Shown here one piece after another: positions 13,413 to 25,789 of a stretch of DNA of 64,000 nt (its first letter is position 1; each line of letters starts with the position of its first letter). A program made the translations under genes and the position numbers. The notes below the pieces were generated by a model. It did not search any database. It was given only the letters and a program-made list of their open reading frames with translations, and was not told where the DNA came from. Source of the DNA: an uncultured Candidatus Saccharibacteria bacterium (GTDB lineage: Bacteria > Patescibacteriota > Minisyncoccia > Phycocordibacterales > UBA5272); NCBI GenBank assembly GCA_964369115.1, contig CAYJED010000001.1, forward strand, positions 3,732 to 67,731. The letters run 5' to 3'.

Positions 13413-14036
13413 TTAAATAAAAAGTTTAGCTTGTTTATATTTTCTTTCTAAAAAAATTGTACTATTTTCGTAAGATTTTTTTAGTAAAATTATACTATCT
13501 TTTTTGCCGTAAGTGAGAACATGCCAACTCTTTTCTTTTTGTGAGTATATCCAGCCACCTTGTATCGTCGACTCTTTTTTTATTTCCGAATGTATCCATT
13601 CTAAGAACGCTTTACTTGCTGAAGCTAATCTTATACGTAGCTGAGGGTGGTTGCTTTCTCTGTGGTAAAAAATATCAATATTACCATCGCCATCAATGCA
13701 CCCTCTAAGAAAGTGAAAAAAATATTTTTTTGGAATTTTAACTTTTTGTATTGTTTTAGATTTAGCTGGAGAAATTCCAAGTTCTAATAAAAATGTATAA
13801 AAGTTTTTATCTCCTATTTGTAAAACATAATACATTTTTCCTGTATTAGAATTTCTTTCTCCAATCATACAAGTAAGAAATAGGGATGTCTTTATTTTCA
13901 GGAGCAGCTCTTCATCCTTTGATGTGATCACTATATGTCTTCCGTCTATAGAAAGATTTCCATCGGTGGCAATAATCCCAATAATATAGGCAAGTTCAGA
14001 GGACCAGACTGTTGAAACTTTTTTCTTTTGTTTCAT
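13413..14036 (-). CDS. LAGLIDADG-family homing endonuclease, free-standing
   Basis: Two LAGLIDADG-type motifs (YIIGIIATDGNL and FLRGCIDGDGNI). Not embedded in an intron or intein within this window. Confidence 0.75.
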   Translation of the reverse strand: MKQKKKVSTVWSSELAYIIGIIATDGNLSIDGRHIVITSKDEELLLKIKTSLFLTCMIGERNSNTGKMYYVLQIGDKNFYTFLLELGISPAKSKTIQKVKIPKKYFFHFLRGCIDGDGNIDIFYHRESNHPQLRIRLASASKAFLEWIHSEIKKESTIQGGWIYSQKEKSWHVLTYGKKDSIILLKKSYENSTIFLERKYKQAKLFI

Positions 14037-14121
14037 TTATTCTAGTGTAGCATACTAAGGCATATAGCATATACCAAATTAAAATATCAAAAATAGCTCA
14101 ATTAAGAGTTATTTTATAATG

Positions 14122-14203
14122 TGCCCAGGACTGGACTTGAACCAGCACGCTCGAAAGCATTAGTTCCTAAGACTAACGTGTCTACCAATTTCACCACCTG
14201 GGC
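14122..14203 (-). tRNA. tRNA-Leu (anticodon TAG)
   Basis: Acceptor GCCCAGG/CCTGGGC, anticodon loop CTTAGGA, long variable arm, T-arm GCTGG-TTCAAGT-CCAGT. Confidence 0.85.
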
Positions 14204-14353
14204 GTATATAGTTGTGTACAATTTTGAAAACTGTTTGCGAATTATAGCGTACTTTTTGCTTTTTTGCGAGCAGTGCTACAGTTTTTGGGCAAAAGAAAAA
14301 CCCCCGAAACGATTAAACGTTTGACAGGGGTTGTGCTTCATCTTGCGTGAAGC

Positions 14354-15553
14354 TTAGGCGGTTGCGGCCTTGTTGGCCGAAGCCTTGTAGGCCACCACCA
14401 GTTCGGCGAGCTCGGCACCATCGATGCCTGCGCTCTTGAGCGAGGCGATGTATTGCGGCAAGCCGGAGGTCGGTGCCTTGGGCTCGGCCGGTGCTTGCGC
14501 AGCCGGCACTTCGGTCCTGGGAGCCGTAGCAACGGTTTTCGGAGTCGGCCGATTGCCGCCACGGCCGAGGAAGCCGACATGCTGATGTTCGTGGATGCTG
14601 TGCACTTTGCGGGCGTCATGCAGACGTTTGCAGGCTGCCATCATCGCGTTCATCAGTTGCTGGCGCTCGAGTTCTTCGAGTCCGCCGCCGTTCAAGTACT
14701 TGAGAAGTTCACCGGCGGAAGCGATCATCTCACCCTGGCTCATCTTCTCTTCGTCGAAGAACTCGGGGAACTGACCTCGGCTGCACTTGAGGTAGGTGCC
14801 GTTCAGCGTCTTGGCGGCAAGCGGATGCTTGTTGCCGATGTGGCCGATGCCGACGACGATAGTCGAGTGACGGGTGTCATCGAACATGAACCCGAGCACG
14901 ATACCGTCCTCCATCGTTTTGCCGAAGCGAACCTCGACACGATTCTTGTCGCTCAGTTGCTCGAGCAACGAAACGTTGGCCGATGCGCGGCTCCAGGCGG
15001 TGGCCTCTTCACCGATGAACTTGAACTTCTCGCGTTCGCTGGAAACGAATGCCGAGAGGTTTCCGAGGTCTTCCTCGCTGAGCTGTTCCCGGATGTAGCT
15101 GATCATCAGCTGTTGCTTCTGACCAGCCTTGCCCGGGATGGTGCTCACGAAGTTGTTCTTCGCGACCTGCCAGAACATCACGAAGATGTTCTCGTTGGTG
15201 CGCACGTGAGGTGCGAACACCACCGCCGTCGAGCTGACCAAAATCAGCCGATCAGGCGCCAGGTACTCAAACTGGCTTTCGCCAGCAAAGTCCACGCGGA
15301 CACCCGTTCGGAGGGTGCCCTCGATGATCGCCTCGACCATTTCGGTCCAAGAAATCACCGGAACAGGGATGGCGAGGTTGTCGAGCTGATCGGAGATCGA
15401 TCCGCGGCTGCCGCGCCTTTCGCGACGATCCTTGGATTCTTCGGATTGACGTTGTCGTACTGCGATGAGCTTGGAAGTGCCGGGGCCGTTGGAGCCACTG
15501 TTCTTGCCAGCTTTCTTGTTGGCGCCGTTGGAAGCATTCTTGTTGGAGGCCAT
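14354..15553 (-). CDS. Hypothetical protein encoded in a high-GC island; likely of foreign origin
   Basis: About 400-aa ORF (MASNKNASNGANKK...) with protein-like composition and strong GC3 bias. The 398-aa ORF on the opposite strand looks like a GC-shadow ORF. Sharp GC transitions at about 14335 and 15610. Confidence 0.55.
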   Translation of the reverse strand: MASNKNASNGANKKAGKNSGSNGPGTSKLIAVRQRQSEESKDRRERRGSRGSISDQLDNLAIPVPVISWTEMVEAIIEGTLRTGVRVDFAGESQFEYLAPDRLILVSSTAVVFAPHVRTNENIFVMFWQVAKNNFVSTIPGKAGQKQQLMISYIREQLSEEDLGNLSAFVSSEREKFKFIGEEATAWSRASANVSLLEQLSDKNRVEVRFGKTMEDGIVLGFMFDDTRHSTIVVGIGHIGNKHPLAAKTLNGTYLKCSRGQFPEFFDEEKMSQGEMIASAGELLKYLNGGGLEELERQQLMNAMMAACKRLHDARKVHSIHEHQHVGFLGRGGNRPTPKTVATAPRTEVPAAQAPAEPKAPTSGLPQYIASLKSAGIDGAELAELVVAYKASANKAATA

Positions 15554-15781
15554 GATGTGGACCTTTCTGCGCAATGCGCTTTTTGGAAACAGAAACAGAA
15601 TGAACAAGCTTGTGTACCGGAGGTTATTTCCTCACAATCACATGTATAAGTATACACAATTTTACAGATTTGTCAAGTATTTTCTTGTAAGAAATATACA
15701 TTTTACCTTTATTTATAAGCTTTATTTGTCTATTTTTACCTTTTTACGTAGGATGGAAAGTGTTGTTCTTTATGAAATAAG

Positions 15782-18743: not shown

Positions 18744-19238
18744 TTATTTTTTGGCCTCTTTGTGAGCATCTTTTGCTTCTTTAAGTACTTGCTCTTCTTC
18801 TTCAGTTAATTCGTAGGTGCTTGTGTAGTTCTGTACAGGTTTTGCAAATGTATTATTTCTTTCATGGGCGTGAAGAGAAGAAATAACAGCCCCGTTTCCT
18901 TCTTCGTTAACAAGAGCTATTGAAAAACTCTGATTTGAGCCATTTTGGTCAAATGCTTTATAACGAACGGTGGAAACATTTCTAATAGCGTGAGACATTT
19001 TCTCCTGGAGAGTAAGAGCATGAGCTGAGATGAGTTCGTTACGCTCTTCGATTTTTTTAACACTTTCAATACATTTTTCTATGGTGTCTTCCAGAGATGC
19101 GCCGTTTTTCCCACGGGTAAGATGTGTTACTTTTCTATCCAAGTACACGATGTATGCAAATAAAATAACGATAACAAAAGAAAGAATAGCGATTGGGTCA
19201 GTTACTAAAGATAAGAGGGGAATTGGGCCAAATGACAT
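18744..19238 (-). CDS. DUF4446-like membrane-anchored protein
   Basis: Start set at the internal ATG (MSFGPIPL...). N-terminal TM helix followed by a coiled region. The family assignment is from memory. Confidence 0.45.
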   Translation of the reverse strand: MSFGPIPLLSLVTDPIAILSFVIVILFAYIVYLDRKVTHLTRGKNGASLEDTIEKCIESVKKIEERNELISAHALTLQEKMSHAIRNVSTVRYKAFDQNGSNQSFSIALVNEEGNGAVISSLHAHERNNTFAKPVQNYTSTYELTEEEEQVLKEAKDAHKEAKK

Positions 19239-19534
19239 GGAAGAAAGAGCGGTTATGGATATGAAAAATAAATCTTTTATATCTCCGAGTGTAGCATGTG
19301 AATGGTTACATGCTGTGAATAAAAAAGTATGTAAAATAATGCTGCAGTGCTGATCTGTGGAAGTACTTGACAAAAAATATGTATATGCTTACTAGTTATT
19401 ACCATCGTCGAAAAGTGACCAGTAACCCTGGAAGCTTTGGTCAGAAGTTTGACCACTTTGATGGCCTGTGTGGTGTGCAGCCTGCGAGGCTGCCCCATAA
19501 GTTCTTTTCATCAACCACGATCTAGGAGATCTGC

Positions 19535-19654
19535 ATGAAGCATCCGCCGAACGCCAAGAGCGCCAATCTGTACAGCCTGATCGCCATCGCTTCCGCCACG
19601 ACCTGCGCCGGCCTGGGCGCCGACAACTCGACGTCGGCCACCGCCAGCCCCTGA
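19535..19654 (+). CDS. Small GC-rich ORF with a signal-peptide-like N-terminus; possibly the 5' remnant of a foreign pseudogene
   Basis: AGGAG lies 6 nt upstream of the ATG. GC3 is near 95%. The same frame continues open past two TGA codons to 19933. Confidence 0.2.
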   Translation: MKHPPNAKSANLYSLIAIASATTCAGLGADNSTSATASP

Positions 19655-20162
19655 ACCGGCGGCCAGCCAAGGTTGATCGCGTACTGAAGATCTGATTCTT
19701 CGGTGCCCGCCGCCTGCACGCGAAAGATGTGCGCGCACGCGCGTTCGATCAGCCTCGGCAACCGCCGCAACCGCCTGCGTTTACGCTTGCAGTTTAAGCG
19801 TGACCGCAGGCGAACGCTCTTCCAGGCTCGCCTTGGCATCATCTCGATGGTGCCGTCGCCCGGAATTCCTGTGGACCTTAGAGCATCCACTCGTCTATGC
19901 CAAGAAGGAGAACCCTTCATGACCTGGTACTAGCGAAGATCTGGCCGCGCCACAGACGTTCACAACGCCTCTGGAGGGCGTCCCTCAAGGACCAGCCCTG
20001 AAGCACTGCCGGAACTCCCTCGCGGGAAGAAAGGAATACCAACGTGGCACCTTGTTAAAGCCCTTTGTGTCTGGAAAGACCAATGAGCTACAAGGCTCGT
20101 CGATAAGCACTACTAAAGCGGCTCGGTCTCTTGAGACCAGTTACTGAAGACTCGTGCCAACC

Positions 20163-20200
20163 GCCCCCAACGTCGCAAGATGTTGGGGGCTTTCATTTTT
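20163..20200 (+). terminator. Intrinsic terminator at the end of the high-GC island
   Basis: 9-bp stem GCCCCCAAC/GTTGGGGGC followed by TTTCATTTTT. Confidence 0.6.
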
Positions 20201-20268
20201 CATAGTTGCAAGAAATATAATTGTAAAAAATTCTTTTTAAGAGTAGTATTCCAGTCAGTTCTTTATAT

Positions 20269-21336
20269 ATGGAGGCTAACATGCTTGAAAATAGTTTTTT
20301 CTCGCTTGATACTGCTAAAGCTCATCAACTCATTGATGTGCTCTATCATGCGTATGTTGGTGAGAGAGGGTTTTATGCTCATCATCATCAAGCTCATGCA
20401 CCGCAGAATGTGCACGCTCCGCTTGCACCTATTCCCACCCAAGACGATCTCTTCGGTGGGCAGTTTGAGCAGGCGATGCTCCGTGCCAAGAAATCATCTG
20501 GAAGAAAGGTTTCCGTAAAAGCTCTTACAGCTGGTTCCCTTGATCACACCAGGTGGCTTTTCTTTGCAACACTTTGTGACAGGAGGCAGGTAAGCAACTG
20601 GGTGTACGCTGCACATGAACGTTTGCACTTTGAGCATCCAGAGCTCTATTCTCATCGTGTGACGCGAATGGATCCTCATGATTTTGGTGAGATGCTTGCA
20701 CGTTACAGGGTGGGATGTCCTCGTCAGTCGGCAGGGTATTGGATACGTTCCGCAACAACTCTGTTTGAAGATTTTGAAGGAGATCCAGTGCTTCCTTTTC
20801 GGGAAAGCGGACTTACGGTTGAAGGATTTATTTCATTCAAAAAGGGGTATAGGCGTGACGGAAAATTAACCGACCCGTTCCCTGGGTATGGTTCAAAAAT
20901 TGCATCGTTGTACCTCCTTTTCCTTGCGGAAATTGGGGTGATAGCGATGCCACGCGATGCTTTCCCTGTAGATGTTCATGTACAGCGGCTTTTCTTTCAA
21001 ATGGGTGCACTCACCTTACATGAAGGAAGTGTTGTCACTAATGAACAGTGTGAGAGAGAGATTCGACCACTGATCTGCTCGTATGCGAACGAGAAAGGGT
21101 ACTGCAAGGTCGCGCTCTCACATGCCTTCTGGCTTCTTGGTCGCACACTTTGCACGAACTGTGACAAGAGAAAAGGGAAAGGTGTTAATCATCTCTGTCC
21201 AGTCTTTGAAGATTGCAAAGGAACAGCCGAAACTTCTTCGTATTTCAGAAAAGGAACATGGGGACCGATTATGTTTTTGGGGAAAAACGGAATCAAGTAT
21301 GAAAGAGATGAAGACAAACAACGTGTTGGTCGTTAA
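20269..21336 (+). CDS. HhH-GPD superfamily DNA glycosylase-like protein with a C-terminal Cys cluster
   Basis: HhH (FPGYGSKIASLYLLF) followed by FPVDVHVQRLFFQMG, which resembles the endonuclease III/AlkA catalytic region. C-terminal CTNCDKRKGKGVNHLCPVFEDC. The gene is about 48% GC, above the background. Confidence 0.5.
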   Translation: MEANMLENSFFSLDTAKAHQLIDVLYHAYVGERGFYAHHHQAHAPQNVHAPLAPIPTQDDLFGGQFEQAMLRAKKSSGRKVSVKALTAGSLDHTRWLFFATLCDRRQVSNWVYAAHERLHFEHPELYSHRVTRMDPHDFGEMLARYRVGCPRQSAGYWIRSATTLFEDFEGDPVLPFRESGLTVEGFISFKKGYRRDGKLTDPFPGYGSKIASLYLLFLAEIGVIAMPRDAFPVDVHVQRLFFQMGALTLHEGSVVTNEQCEREIRPLICSYANEKGYCKVALSHAFWLLGRTLCTNCDKRKGKGVNHLCPVFEDCKGTAETSSYFRKGTWGPIMFLGKNGIKYERDEDKQRVGR

Positions 21337-21445: not shown

Positions 21446-22519
21446 TTATTTGGTATTTTTTTGTTGAGTGCCAAGAATGATCTGAGGTGCAAGCTCTTCT
21501 ACAACCGCTTGAGCTTCCTGCACCGCTCTTGCTGCACTTCCGCTTGTTACTTTGCCTATAGCCTCGTGCCTGTGGAAGCGAACAACTCTTCGTACATGAT
21601 CTGCACCAGCAAGCACTGTTTGTTCAACGGTGTTTCCTGTTTTTCTCTTCATCCCTTCGACCACCTCTTGTATTTCAAGACTAAAGAGAGGTTGAGCACC
21701 TGATCGTGCCGCTGCAAGCGACCTGATGCGCTCAGATATAACCTTCGCTACCTCTTTTGGAGACTTGTGCTGTGCGATGAGTACGTACGCCCACTTGATA
21801 AGCTCAAGTGTTGAAAGTGGCGCACCATACTCTTCTTGCGCTTCCTGAAGGCGAGCAAGTTCGGTAAGGGTTGTGTAGGGGACTCCTCTCTTAAATTCCT
21901 TACTTGGCATCACAAGCTCTTGCACTTCAGTTGGAAGCGACATAAAGCGCACTGCTCTACGAATCGCTTCTGGAGTCTTCCCCATCTTTCGAGCAAAGGA
22001 AGCGAGACTCATTGAAGGGTCTATTTTCTTTGTTGATCTCCAGATGAGAGCAAAGCTTGCCGCTGACTCTTCTGGAGCAAGTTGCTCATGAAGGTTTTCT
22101 TGTGCTTGAAATTCAATCGCTTGAATAAACGAAAGATCAAAGCGCAGGTATGAGAGATAGCTATCGAGTCTTACTCTCTTACAAGCACGAAGCCTGCGTT
22201 CGCCTGCCACAAGGAAAAGGTAGTAAGCTTCTCCTTTTTCTGTGATCCTTACTGGGGTGAAGCTTCTTAGGAGATGCTTCGTTCCCCAGGTTTCGTTGAT
22301 GCATTCGAGGTACTGTAGAGCTTCCTCTTTGGAGAGAGCAACTACAACACCAGGGTTCATCTGTCCTTTGCTTTTGATGCTTTCCGCAAGTTCGTCCAAA
22401 CTCTCCTCTCTGAACTTTGTACGCATTTGCCTGAGAACAGTGATCGTTCTCACCGGAAGGTGAACCAGATGTGTTCCTTTCGGAGGTGCAGCCTTCTGCC
22501 TCTTAAGAGAGATTTCCAT
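21446..22519 (-). CDS. Second ParB/Srx-fold (ParB-like nuclease domain) protein
   Basis: LVAGERRLRACKRV ParB box and an HTH-like segment (SFARKMGKTPEAIRRAV). Distinct from the canonical parB at 1244. Confidence 0.65.
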   Translation of the reverse strand: MEISLKRQKAAPPKGTHLVHLPVRTITVLRQMRTKFREESLDELAESIKSKGQMNPGVVVALSKEEALQYLECINETWGTKHLLRSFTPVRITEKGEAYYLFLVAGERRLRACKRVRLDSYLSYLRFDLSFIQAIEFQAQENLHEQLAPEESAASFALIWRSTKKIDPSMSLASFARKMGKTPEAIRRAVRFMSLPTEVQELVMPSKEFKRGVPYTTLTELARLQEAQEEYGAPLSTLELIKWAYVLIAQHKSPKEVAKVISERIRSLAAARSGAQPLFSLEIQEVVEGMKRKTGNTVEQTVLAGADHVRRVVRFHRHEAIGKVTSGSAARAVQEAQAVVEELAPQIILGTQQKNTK

Positions 22520-22621
22520 GAGTATCTCCTCGTAGATTAAAGAACTGGTGATAATAGTACTCTTAAAAAAAATTTCGTCAAAATCTATCTTTTTTATGAT
22601 AGAGTATACTTACTTATAATT

Positions 22622-23967: not shown

Positions 23968-24321
23968 ATGAAGACGTTCAGAGATCTTGTTGTTTGGCAA
24001 CGTGCAATTGATTTTGCTACGTCAATCTATGAGGTTACTTCTCGTTTTCCGAGTTCTGAAATGTATGGATTAACAAATCAACTAAGAAGAGCAAGTGTTT
24101 CTGTGTCTTCAAATATTGCAGAGGGAAGTAAGCGTGGTTCTAAAAAAGAGTTCACACATTTTTTAAGAATAGCGCAAGGGTCTCTTGCTGAAATTGAAAC
24201 ACAACTTACGATAGCTAAAAATCTTAGTTTTGTCACTAGCGATAGATCTACAGAATTACTTAATGAACTAGAATCTATTACAAAGATGCTCACAAAGTTA
24301 ATTAATACGACGAAAGAATAA
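23968..24321 (+). CDS. Four-helix-bundle protein (TIGR02436 / 23S rRNA intervening-sequence protein family)
   Basis: Characteristic sequence (DLVVWQRAIDF...NIAEG...LRIAQGSLAEIETQL). Confidence 0.8.
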   Translation: MKTFRDLVVWQRAIDFATSIYEVTSRFPSSEMYGLTNQLRRASVSVSSNIAEGSKRGSKKEFTHFLRIAQGSLAEIETQLTIAKNLSFVTSDRSTELLNELESITKMLTKLINTTKE

Positions 24322-25392: not shown

Positions 25393-25569
25393 TCAGAGGG
25401 TGACGAGGCTGTGTACCAATGGGTGATCCTTCACCGTTTGGAGTACGTACATGACGATCTCTTCGACCTTGAGGGTTGGATGCGTGATGTTCAGGTAGAA
25501 CACCGTGAACCCGAAAAAGACGAAGGTGATGCCGGCACTGCCAGCAATCACAGACAGAACCTTGCGCAT
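25393..25569 (-). CDS. Small membrane protein of 58 aa, hypothetical
   Basis: Internal ATG (MRKVLSVIAGSAGITFVFF...) with an AAAGGAG RBS. One TM helix. Confidence 0.4.
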   Translation of the reverse strand: MRKVLSVIAGSAGITFVFFGFTVFYLNITHPTLKVEEIVMYVLQTVKDHPLVHSLVTL

Positions 25570-25789
25570 GGAGACACTCCTTTCGCGGAAGAAAAAAGAA
25601 ATAACTACTGTATATAATATAGCATATTTAGTACACTTTGTCAAGTTGACGAAGGGGGTATTTTTTGCGAAGGTAAGTATATCCAGCTACGATTGTACAC
25701 CTGCTTATCCACCACGACTGAAACCCTGTATTCTGTTACACTGTATATGTATTTGAATTGTAGGTTGTATGGTTTTTGTTTGTATTTTG

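Follow-up and report, generated by a model that had tools for sequence, protein, structure and literature searches.

A GC-rich island upstream of DUF4446-infB-rbfA in a Candidatus Saccharibacteria genome and its possible origin as an eroding exported-protein gene

How is a GC-rich island that holds no convincing gene to be understood in an otherwise AT-rich genome? The question is posed by a 64,000-nt stretch of contig CAYJED010000001.1 from an uncultured Candidatus Saccharibacteria bacterium (hereafter, the window), in which such an island lies at 19390-20200, upstream of the gene row DUF4446-infB-rbfA. Background GC, calculated from 200-nt segments across the 64 kb, is 38.7 ± 5.2% and reaches at most 54%; just two places exceed 55% in such segments, 14263-15602 and 19409-20191. 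The second of these is the island. Its GC maximum lies at 19575-19774 and amounts to 69% in a 200-nt segment, which bears out the view of an earlier note on this DNA that the island is distinct from its background. The same note gave the GC content of 19390-20200 as about 68%. This value fits the core of the island (66-69%) and not the whole interval, for which we obtained 57.6%; 19535-19933 and 19600-19799 have 62.4% and 66.5%, respectively.

The explanation that we favour, at slightly less than an even chance, is that the island represents what erosion has left of a rapidly evolving gene for a small exported protein: its 5′ end, which the species is now losing. Read in this way, an RNA would start near 19400 from the promoter, ribosomes would load at the sequence AGGAG and translate 39 codons into a signal-peptide-like peptide, and the remaining ~510 nt would be an untranslated GC-rich tail. 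The gene would formerly have encoded an exported protein, like genes that related lineages have at this position.

The island itself is not an assembly chimera, because independent assemblies carry the same island: it was found in 13 or more independent metagenome contigs with 96-100% identity (JGI, NCBI, ENA and Logan assemblies, many samples), and the product of a 75-aa antisense open reading frame (ORF) inside it is identical in 17 contigs.

The island as a putative transcription unit

Judged by its signals, the island appears to be one plus-strand transcription unit set in a variable gene position upstream of DUF4446-infB-rbfA. The putative promoter lies at 19367-19395 on the plus strand, with the -35 box TTGACA at 19367-19372 and a -10 remnant, T-TACT, at 19389-19393. 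In the window strain the -10 box has lost 1 nt, by which TATACT has become T-TACT, and the damaged promoter was not called by a promoter scan of this strain. At the corresponding loci of sister strains, L001, L008, L026 and L023 (loci other than that of the window are given as L numbers), the promoter is of a near-consensus sigma-70 type and reads TTGACA, 16 nt, TG-n-TATACT, with 11 of 12 matches and, in addition, the TG of an extended -10 box.

The predicted transcript would begin with a 5′ leader of ~125 nt (19400-19523, plus strand; 48% GC), which is predicted to fold into three to four hairpins, one of them at 19477-19493, and which carries the box GTTCTTTTCATCAAC at 19501-19515. No codon periodicity is seen in the leader. 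At the other end of the unit, the plus-strand terminator described in the earlier note was found at 20163-20200; it consists of a 12-bp stem with eight G-C pairs (20163-20190), a 4-nt GCAA loop and the T tract TTTCATTTTT. L001 has the same terminator, in whose stem a G-U pair is replaced by A-U.

Two contigs from independent assemblies (L023 and L024; JGI and ENA) represent a lineage with 91% identity in DUF4446. They correspond with their positions 1-154 to window 19239-19404 and end at the same base, 8 nt past the point where the island RNA is predicted to start (GTTATTAC). This shared end suggests strain heterogeneity or a drop in coverage exactly at the start of the GC-rich unit.

The leader is followed by a short ORF. 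Its Shine-Dalgarno (SD) sequence AGGAG, which the earlier note had pointed out, was confirmed at 19524-19528 on the plus strand, 6 nt ahead of the ATG at 19535. The ribosome-binding region as a whole (TTCTTTT...AGGAG...ATG) is of the native gene-start type. A pattern of TTCTTT, 5-35 nt, GGAG, 4-10 nt and ATG was found nine times in the window against 0.8 expected. Examples lie at 974-1003, 20259-20283, 22517-22544 and 25567-25600, and a U-rich element 5′ of the SD sequence seems to be a general trait of the translation starts of this organism. The GTTCTTT motif in the 5′ untranslated region (UTR) of the island had also been considered as a sign of common descent with intact genes of relatives, and was rejected as a general gene-start feature here.

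The ORF (19535-19654, plus strand) comprises 39 codons and a TGA and encodes MKHPPNAKSANLYSLIAIASATTCAGLGADNSTSATASP, a peptide that begins like a signal peptide and continues with a Ser/Thr/Ala-rich stretch. The peptide is charged at K2 and K8, contains the motif A-S-A and has an atypical lipobox-like ATTC. Over 11 residues its hydrophobicity reaches a maximum of 1.85 in the window and 2.0 in the sister strain L026, compared with 2.4-2.6 in the signal peptides of the relatives' intact genes. GC by codon position is 0.49/0.64/0.92. The third positions are indeed GC-rich, as had been noted, at 36 of 39 (92%) rather than about 95%. This GC content at third codon positions (GC3) compares with 0.22-0.42 in the 56 other ORFs of the window, and the short ORF is therefore compositionally foreign to the genome.

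How far does the coding signal extend? Three-base periodicity is significant in the 39-codon ORF (p = 1.5e-4), marginal at 19652-19801 (p = 0.047) and absent at 19802-19933. Because codon periodicity is absent there, the open frame at 19802-19933 is without coding signal. We confirmed that the frame contains TGAs at 19652 and 19685 and stays open to 19933. Both TGAs are ordinary stops, not recoded codons, and are of the rare kind in the window, where 58 long ORFs end in TAA (43), TAG (12) or TGA (3). The continuation of the frame past the first TGA (19655-19933, plus strand, with TGA at 19685-19687 and TAG at 19931-19933) is most likely untranslated and may be the decayed remainder of a longer ORF.

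A Pfam search of the island ORFs on both strands gave no match, in agreement with the earlier judgement that none of the long ORFs makes a convincing gene. Antisense ORFs of 132 and 75 aa were rejected as genes, since they have no family match and no start signals and form a shadow frame of the sense periodicity; a 238-nt deletion that hits them in the sister strain L025 and substitutions without third-position bias also speak against them. Public gene calls place antisense hypothetical proteins of 75, 79 or 82 aa in L001-L012 and L026 (corresponding to window 19511-19738 and 19522-19770, minus strand), and these calls are probably shadow-frame annotation artefacts.

From the stop codon of the short ORF to the terminator, ~510 nt contain many GC-rich predicted hairpins. 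The strongest local one, with 17 pairs in the minimum-free-energy fold, is predicted at 19772-19812 (plus strand), and the 3′ part of the tail (19934-20162, plus strand; ~55% GC) is variable among strains and has no frame signal.

The variation among sister strains was followed in an alignment of four versions of the island. In L025, a 238-nt deletion between ATCAACC and ATCAGCC removes the segment 19515-19752, and with it the SD sequence, the ATG, the entire short ORF and the GC core, but L025 still has the promoter, leader, tail and terminator. A second deletion in L025 takes 26 nt of the tail (20094-20119). The short ORF of L026 contains two insertions, of 3 and 9 nt, that preserve the frame and result in 43 aa and a longer hydrophobic core. 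In the tail, the strains differ by 1- and 2-nt insertions or deletions (indels), with a 2-nt indel at 19921, and substitutions hit all codon positions; the most divergent 200 nt of the whole locus, with 14 differences, are 19800-20000. Measured against a fold of a single sequence, paired substitutions in the tail keep the pair in five cases and break it in four. An apparent 8/8 pair-keeping in the tail arose solely from a fold fitted to both sequences and was discarded. In nature, then, the ORF can be dispensed with; the promoter of the window strain is damaged, and no constraint is visible on the tail.

The same position in related lineages

In distant relatives the gene order is class-V aminotransferase, variable position and DUF4446-infB-rbfA. 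The lineage of the window has two extra genes, one encoding a 351-aa protein and one ParB_N-like, between the island and the aminotransferase gene, and both are absent there in six related lineages. The content of the variable position itself changes from lineage to lineage. It is empty in L016 and is taken in L014 by an AT-rich gene whose product of 238 aa has a signal-peptide-like N-terminus. L017, L022 and L027 have GC-enriched genes for secreted-type proteins of 151, 129 and 131 aa, also with signal-peptide-like N-termini, and L015 and L019 have GC-rich units resembling that of the window. In L029, a strong promoter and an unrelated GC-rich leader are followed by the contig end; the DUF4446 of L029 is 81% identical to that of L019, yet the leader is unrelated.

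The proteins of L017, L022 and L027 and the protein P0123 have a common C-terminal motif, G-x-[IV]-I-A-G-A. They form an orphan family with four matches among 1.84 billion representative proteins, and homologues of the relatives' intact genes occur in related metagenome bins only.

The units of the window, L015 and L019 have in common a promoter of the same type (11/12 plus TG), a box that reads TTCATCAAC in the window and L015 and TTCATTCAAC in L019, the sequence AGGAG (6-8 nt from the ATG in L015 and L019), the start pattern ATG-N4-AY-CCN-CCG, and a terminator. Across the window, L015 and L019, this start pattern gives MKHPP, MKDPP and MHDPP (M-x-x-P-P), and the ORFs run for 39, 39 and 13 codons, all stopping at TGA. 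Beyond the first codons the bodies are unrelated or barely related and cannot be aligned. The ORF of L015 has a GC3 of ~95% and encodes a peptide that is not hydrophobic, and L019 shows no periodicity. DUF4446 identity across lineages with such units is 59-70%. Because units at the same position are found in diverged lineages, we conclude that GC-richness is an old, maintained property of the position and not a fresh import.

Two further motifs were seen around the variable position. The motif GTGTAGCATGT, at window 19288-19303, is conserved upstream of DUF4446 in several lineages (L016, L017 and L022) and reads as an extended -10 box on the DUF4446 strand. The motif TGGTAGAGT is conserved a few nucleotides ahead of the aminotransferase ATG in L015, L016, L017 and L019, a placement that suggests very short or absent leaders.

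Weighing the remnant against other explanations

Several features liken the island to a pseudogene or a truncated orphan secreted-protein gene. A native start is followed by in-frame stops and fading periodicity; indels not divisible by three, unconstrained substitutions and presence or absence of the ORF among strains are those of a remnant; and relatives have intact exported-protein genes at the same position. The earlier note had spoken of a decayed pseudogene from a high-GC donor. We retain the first half of this phrase, a gene start followed by decay, on account of the fading periodicity, the indels, the promoter lesion and the L025 deletion. The donor is not supported: none was found in phage and plasmid searches, and the GC-richness is old at this position. 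Of the marks of a pseudogene, a frame disrupted after a genuine start and relaxed constraint were found, and homology to an intact gene was not. The term pseudogene thus rests here on anatomy and population variation and not on homology, because the interrupted frame could not be traced to any intact homologue. What links it to the genes of relatives is the shared position and a resemblance where the ORF begins.

A number of observations speak against a remnant. A profile of the genes that relatives have at this position, run against six-frame translations, gave a best E-value of 0.77, in the signal-peptide part only. Database searches gave no intact relative of the interrupted frame, with one search saturated: a concatenated six-frame query of the island returned 8000 candidates filled by low-complexity words, did not return its self-match and was uninformative. 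Unlike what is expected of a pseudogene remnant, the GC-richness has not worn toward the AT-rich composition of the genome and persists in all lineages with such units despite a background rich in AT. The deeply diverged lineages of the window, L015 and L019 keep promoter, SD sequence, ATG, M-x-x-P-P and terminator without a long ORF, although signals of this kind would be expected to disappear from an old pseudogene. In both the window and L015 the stop is at codon 40, and their gapless alignment from the ATG is better than that of codon-shuffled controls, both in identity (p = 0.024) and in the longest identical run (p = 0.003). Seven substitutions were found in the leader of L025; five of them affect predicted pairs without breaking any, in one case by a two-sided change (G19480-C19490 to A-U). 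This pair-keeping, seen among four near-identical strains, tentatively suggests something other than decay. Finally, GC-rich codons might by themselves have given rise to the hydrophobic stretch; the L015 peptide is not hydrophobic.

Among the alternatives, we first considered that the short ORF is a working gene, which is unlikely and still the best placed of them. It would encode a Sec-exported pre-peptide of 39-43 aa, cleaved after A-S-A or after the lipobox-like ATTC to release a peptide of 16-18 residues, as from precursors of Phr-type pheromones or bacteriocins, and the hairpins would be a stabilising 3′ UTR. The strong ribosome-binding region of native type and the significant codon periodicity are in favour of such a gene, as are the in-frame 3- and 9-nt indels with the longer hydrophobic core of L026, the sequence identical in 17 contigs, the start region kept in L015 and L019 and the length of 39 codons in both the window and L015. 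The peptide, however, is not conserved past about nine residues, lacks a hydrophobic core in L015 and has an ORF of 13 codons in L019. A natural strain lacks the ORF altogether, the promoter of the window strain has a lesion, and there are no adjacent genes for processing, export or a receptor. The comparison with precursors of the Phr, PapR and SHP types (~40 aa) has the same two sides. The island ORF resembles them in its 39-43 aa, its signal-like N-terminus and its short polar C-terminal part; it differs in having no adjacent receptor or regulator gene and in a peptide that is not conserved in relatives, and a 510-nt tail is atypical of this type.

Could the RNA rather than the peptide be the functional product? 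The island is outside every described RNA family. At gathering thresholds, a search of the whole window against Rfam found five tRNAs elsewhere only; at E ≤ 10, the best scores in 19250-20300 were 13-17 bits against thresholds of 39-50, and at E ≤ 1, among ten related loci, nothing was found in the homologous elements. The five tRNAs that ARAGORN detected all lie outside the island, and it detected no tmRNA. With nothing in the island from either program, the earlier failure to match it to RNase P, tmRNA or the signal recognition particle RNA was reproduced, and without a confident Rfam match it is not a known RNA gene.

An undescribed family is a different matter, and can be thought of in two ways. 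The island might be a local, possibly decaying copy of an undescribed family of hairpin-dense, GC-rich RNAs of 400-800 nt with very strong promoters, located at a fixed but fast-evolving position next to the infB operon, with a ribosome-binding site and a mini-ORF M-[K/H]-[H/D]-P-P as the sole conserved coding feature and a GC content kept by selection, which we hold to be rather unlikely. More broadly, Saccharibacteria might have an undescribed family of strongly transcribed, GC-rich and hairpin-rich RNAs in which the RNA, or the translation of the M-x-x-P-P mini-ORF, is functional, either as a regulatory or dual-function RNA of the kind of RNAIII or SgrS, or as a proline- or EF-P-sensitive leader; to this we give a distinctly low probability.

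What argues for such a family is that three deep lineages have promoter, TTCATCAAC box, SD sequence, ATG and the pattern ATG-N4-AY-CCN-CCG in common and nothing else, that the three units are all GC-rich in AT-rich genomes, that L025 keeps all its leader pairs although its ORF is deleted, and that L019 keeps promoter, SD sequence and terminator without having periodicity. The folding energies at first sight point in the same direction. Against local shuffles, the folding z-scores are -5.5 for the island, -5.9 for L015 and -8.9 for L019, compared with -0.02 and -1.6 for intact genes at the same position; against global shuffles, the island has -5.9, and its antisense strand folds equally well. 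However, coding controls of the window are equally negative (the 351-aa gene at -4.6 and the 417-aa ORF of the other GC-rich place at -4.7 to -5.8), with ordinary genes at 0.1 to -1.1, and we therefore rejected a negative folding z-score as evidence for a noncoding RNA.

Further points against an RNA family are the lack of an Rfam match and of any body sequence or structure conserved between lineages, the unrelated leader of L029, the tail substitutions that break about as many predicted pairs as they keep (4 versus 5), and the real codon periodicity in the short ORF of the window. A role as a cis-acting leader is unlikely, because the gene downstream has a promoter of its own and is not the same in all lineages (the 351-aa gene here, the class-V aminotransferase gene in L015 and L019). 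Nor does the arrangement correspond to a leader-peptide attenuator, in that the terminator lies 510 nt past the stop codon and the downstream gene, different by lineage, has its own -10 box.

Dual-function RNAs with an embedded small ORF include RNAIII/hld of Staphylococcus, SgrS/SgrT and SR1/SR1P of Bacillus. The island resembles RNAs of the RNAIII kind in its own promoter and terminator, its length of several hundred nucleotides, its stable hairpins, its short ORF at the 5′ end and its primary sequence, which is poorly conserved between species; unlike them, it has no demonstrated conserved hairpins or target-binding motifs, and covariation is seen at one pair only. With OLE, GOLLD, ROOL, HEARO and raiA it shares the setting, a long intergenic stretch rich in GC within a low-GC genome, as well as bounds formed by promoter and terminator and a strongly negative z-score, and it differs from them in having no covariance-model match, an unconserved body, and a ribosome-binding site with a periodic ORF.

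The compositional contrast that we ascribe to the position could instead stem from a recent import, which we consider highly improbable. In that case the start of a lipoprotein gene would have come from a high-GC organism, such as an actinobacterial host of the episymbiont, and would be functionless in the recipient. The GC3 of 92%, compared with 22-42% for the 56 other ORFs, would fit, as would the TGA stop in a window where TAA ends 43 of 58 ORFs, and the peptide, read by eye and without a tool, resembles the N-terminus of a lipoprotein of a high-GC organism. On the other hand, no plasmid or phage match was obtained at the DNA or protein level: phage and plasmid collections had no match to the island by DNA similarity, and a tblastn search of plasmids with the intact L017 gene found none either. 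Homologous units stand at the same position in long-diverged lineages, promoter and ribosome-binding region are of the recipient type, and the relatives' intact genes have homologues in related metagenome bins only. Other searches were similarly meagre. A scan of a genome collection with DUF4446 yielded two loci; two metagenome scans, one with the DUF4446 protein profile and one with the DNA pattern of the conserved start region, yielded nothing, and neither did the same DNA pattern in viral contigs.

TGA recoding (selenocysteine or TGA as sense), by which 19535-19933 would encode a full 132-aa protein, has a minute probability, and both it and an assembly artefact are effectively excluded: the frame is open save for the two TGAs and a TGA likewise stands at codon 40 of L015, but 58 long ORFs are intact under code 11 with three of them ending in TGA, periodicity is absent past 19802, the frame has the 2-nt indel at 19921 and substitutions at all codon positions, the read-through product is Arg-rich and without family match, the second TGA is placed differently in the window and L015, and no tRNA-Sec was found in the 64-kb window.

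Neighbouring genes and the meaning of the variable position

The gene to the left of the island (18744-19238, minus strand), which is divergent from it and opens the DUF4446-infB-rbfA row, had been called DUF4446-like, and its 164-aa product indeed matches Pfam PF14584 (E = 2e-38); the closest DUF4446 proteins in species-representative genomes are from Candidatus Saccharibacteria bins. Its start is the ATG at 19238 and not 19373, because solely the 164-aa product is recorded in public assemblies (16 contigs) and the longer TTG-start product is not. With the start at 19238, the extent of the intergenic gap is corrected to 19239-20280. On the right follows the 351-aa gene (20281-21336, plus strand), whose product from the ATG at 20281 is on record. 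It has no Pfam match, and its former label of HhH-GPD is not sustained, the similarity to endonuclease III being weak (E = 0.66). The ParB_N-like gene (357 aa) lies downstream of it at 21446-22519. GC3 of these two genes is 0.40-0.42, slightly above most genes of the window, and the folding z-score of the 351-aa gene, at -4.6, is unusually negative.

The first GC island of the window contains an intact ORF of 417 aa (14354-15607, minus strand; GC3 0.75) with an 11/12 promoter at 15676-15649. Neither Pfam nor NCBIfam gave a match for it. At the analogous place past rbfA, L014 and L015 contain ORFs of 444-448 aa with a high GC content (63%), to which the 417-aa ORF has no detectable similarity. 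The place beyond rbfA looks like a second position with GC-rich, fast-evolving sequence. Directly upstream of the first GC island, a free-standing ORF of 207 aa resembling LAGLIDADG homing endonucleases (13413-14036, minus strand; PF14528, E = 8e-13) adjoins a tRNA-Leu at 14121-14203.

A 117-aa ORF at 23968-24321 belongs, by precomputed Pfam matches, to the 23S rRNA intervening-sequence/bAvd four-helix-bundle family. It is conserved beside the aminotransferase gene in L022 and is the only family associated with diversity-generating retroelements that was seen, with no reverse transcriptase or repeat pair near it. Such a retroelement was also looked for at the island, where neighbouring ORFs had no reverse-transcriptase domain and no pair of template and variable repeats was present; the island had no match elsewhere in the window, the single match being a 41-nt inverted one inside it. 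The literature on GC-rich RNAs or highly expressed small secreted proteins of Saccharibacteria contained nothing relevant that we could find.

What does the island mean, then, for this organism and its relatives? The variable position, together with the second one beyond rbfA, is GC-enriched in several lineages with genomes of 36-47% GC, and turnover here is fast. Candidate causes of the enrichment are GC-biased conversion driven by recombination, repeated imports from GC-rich hosts and selection on RNA. That promoter, ribosome-binding site and M-x-x-P-P are kept in three deep lineages before otherwise unrelated sequence is not what neutral decay predicts. Were an RNA family to be the true explanation, it could be translation-sensing, for example by reading out proline- or EF-P-dependent elongation. 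For annotation, the locus carries a warning, as gene callers put spurious antisense ORFs of 75-82 aa in the island. If our favoured explanation of an eroding exported-protein gene is true, the island would be an ordinary orphan gene in erosion, at a variable position of the reduced genome of an episymbiont.

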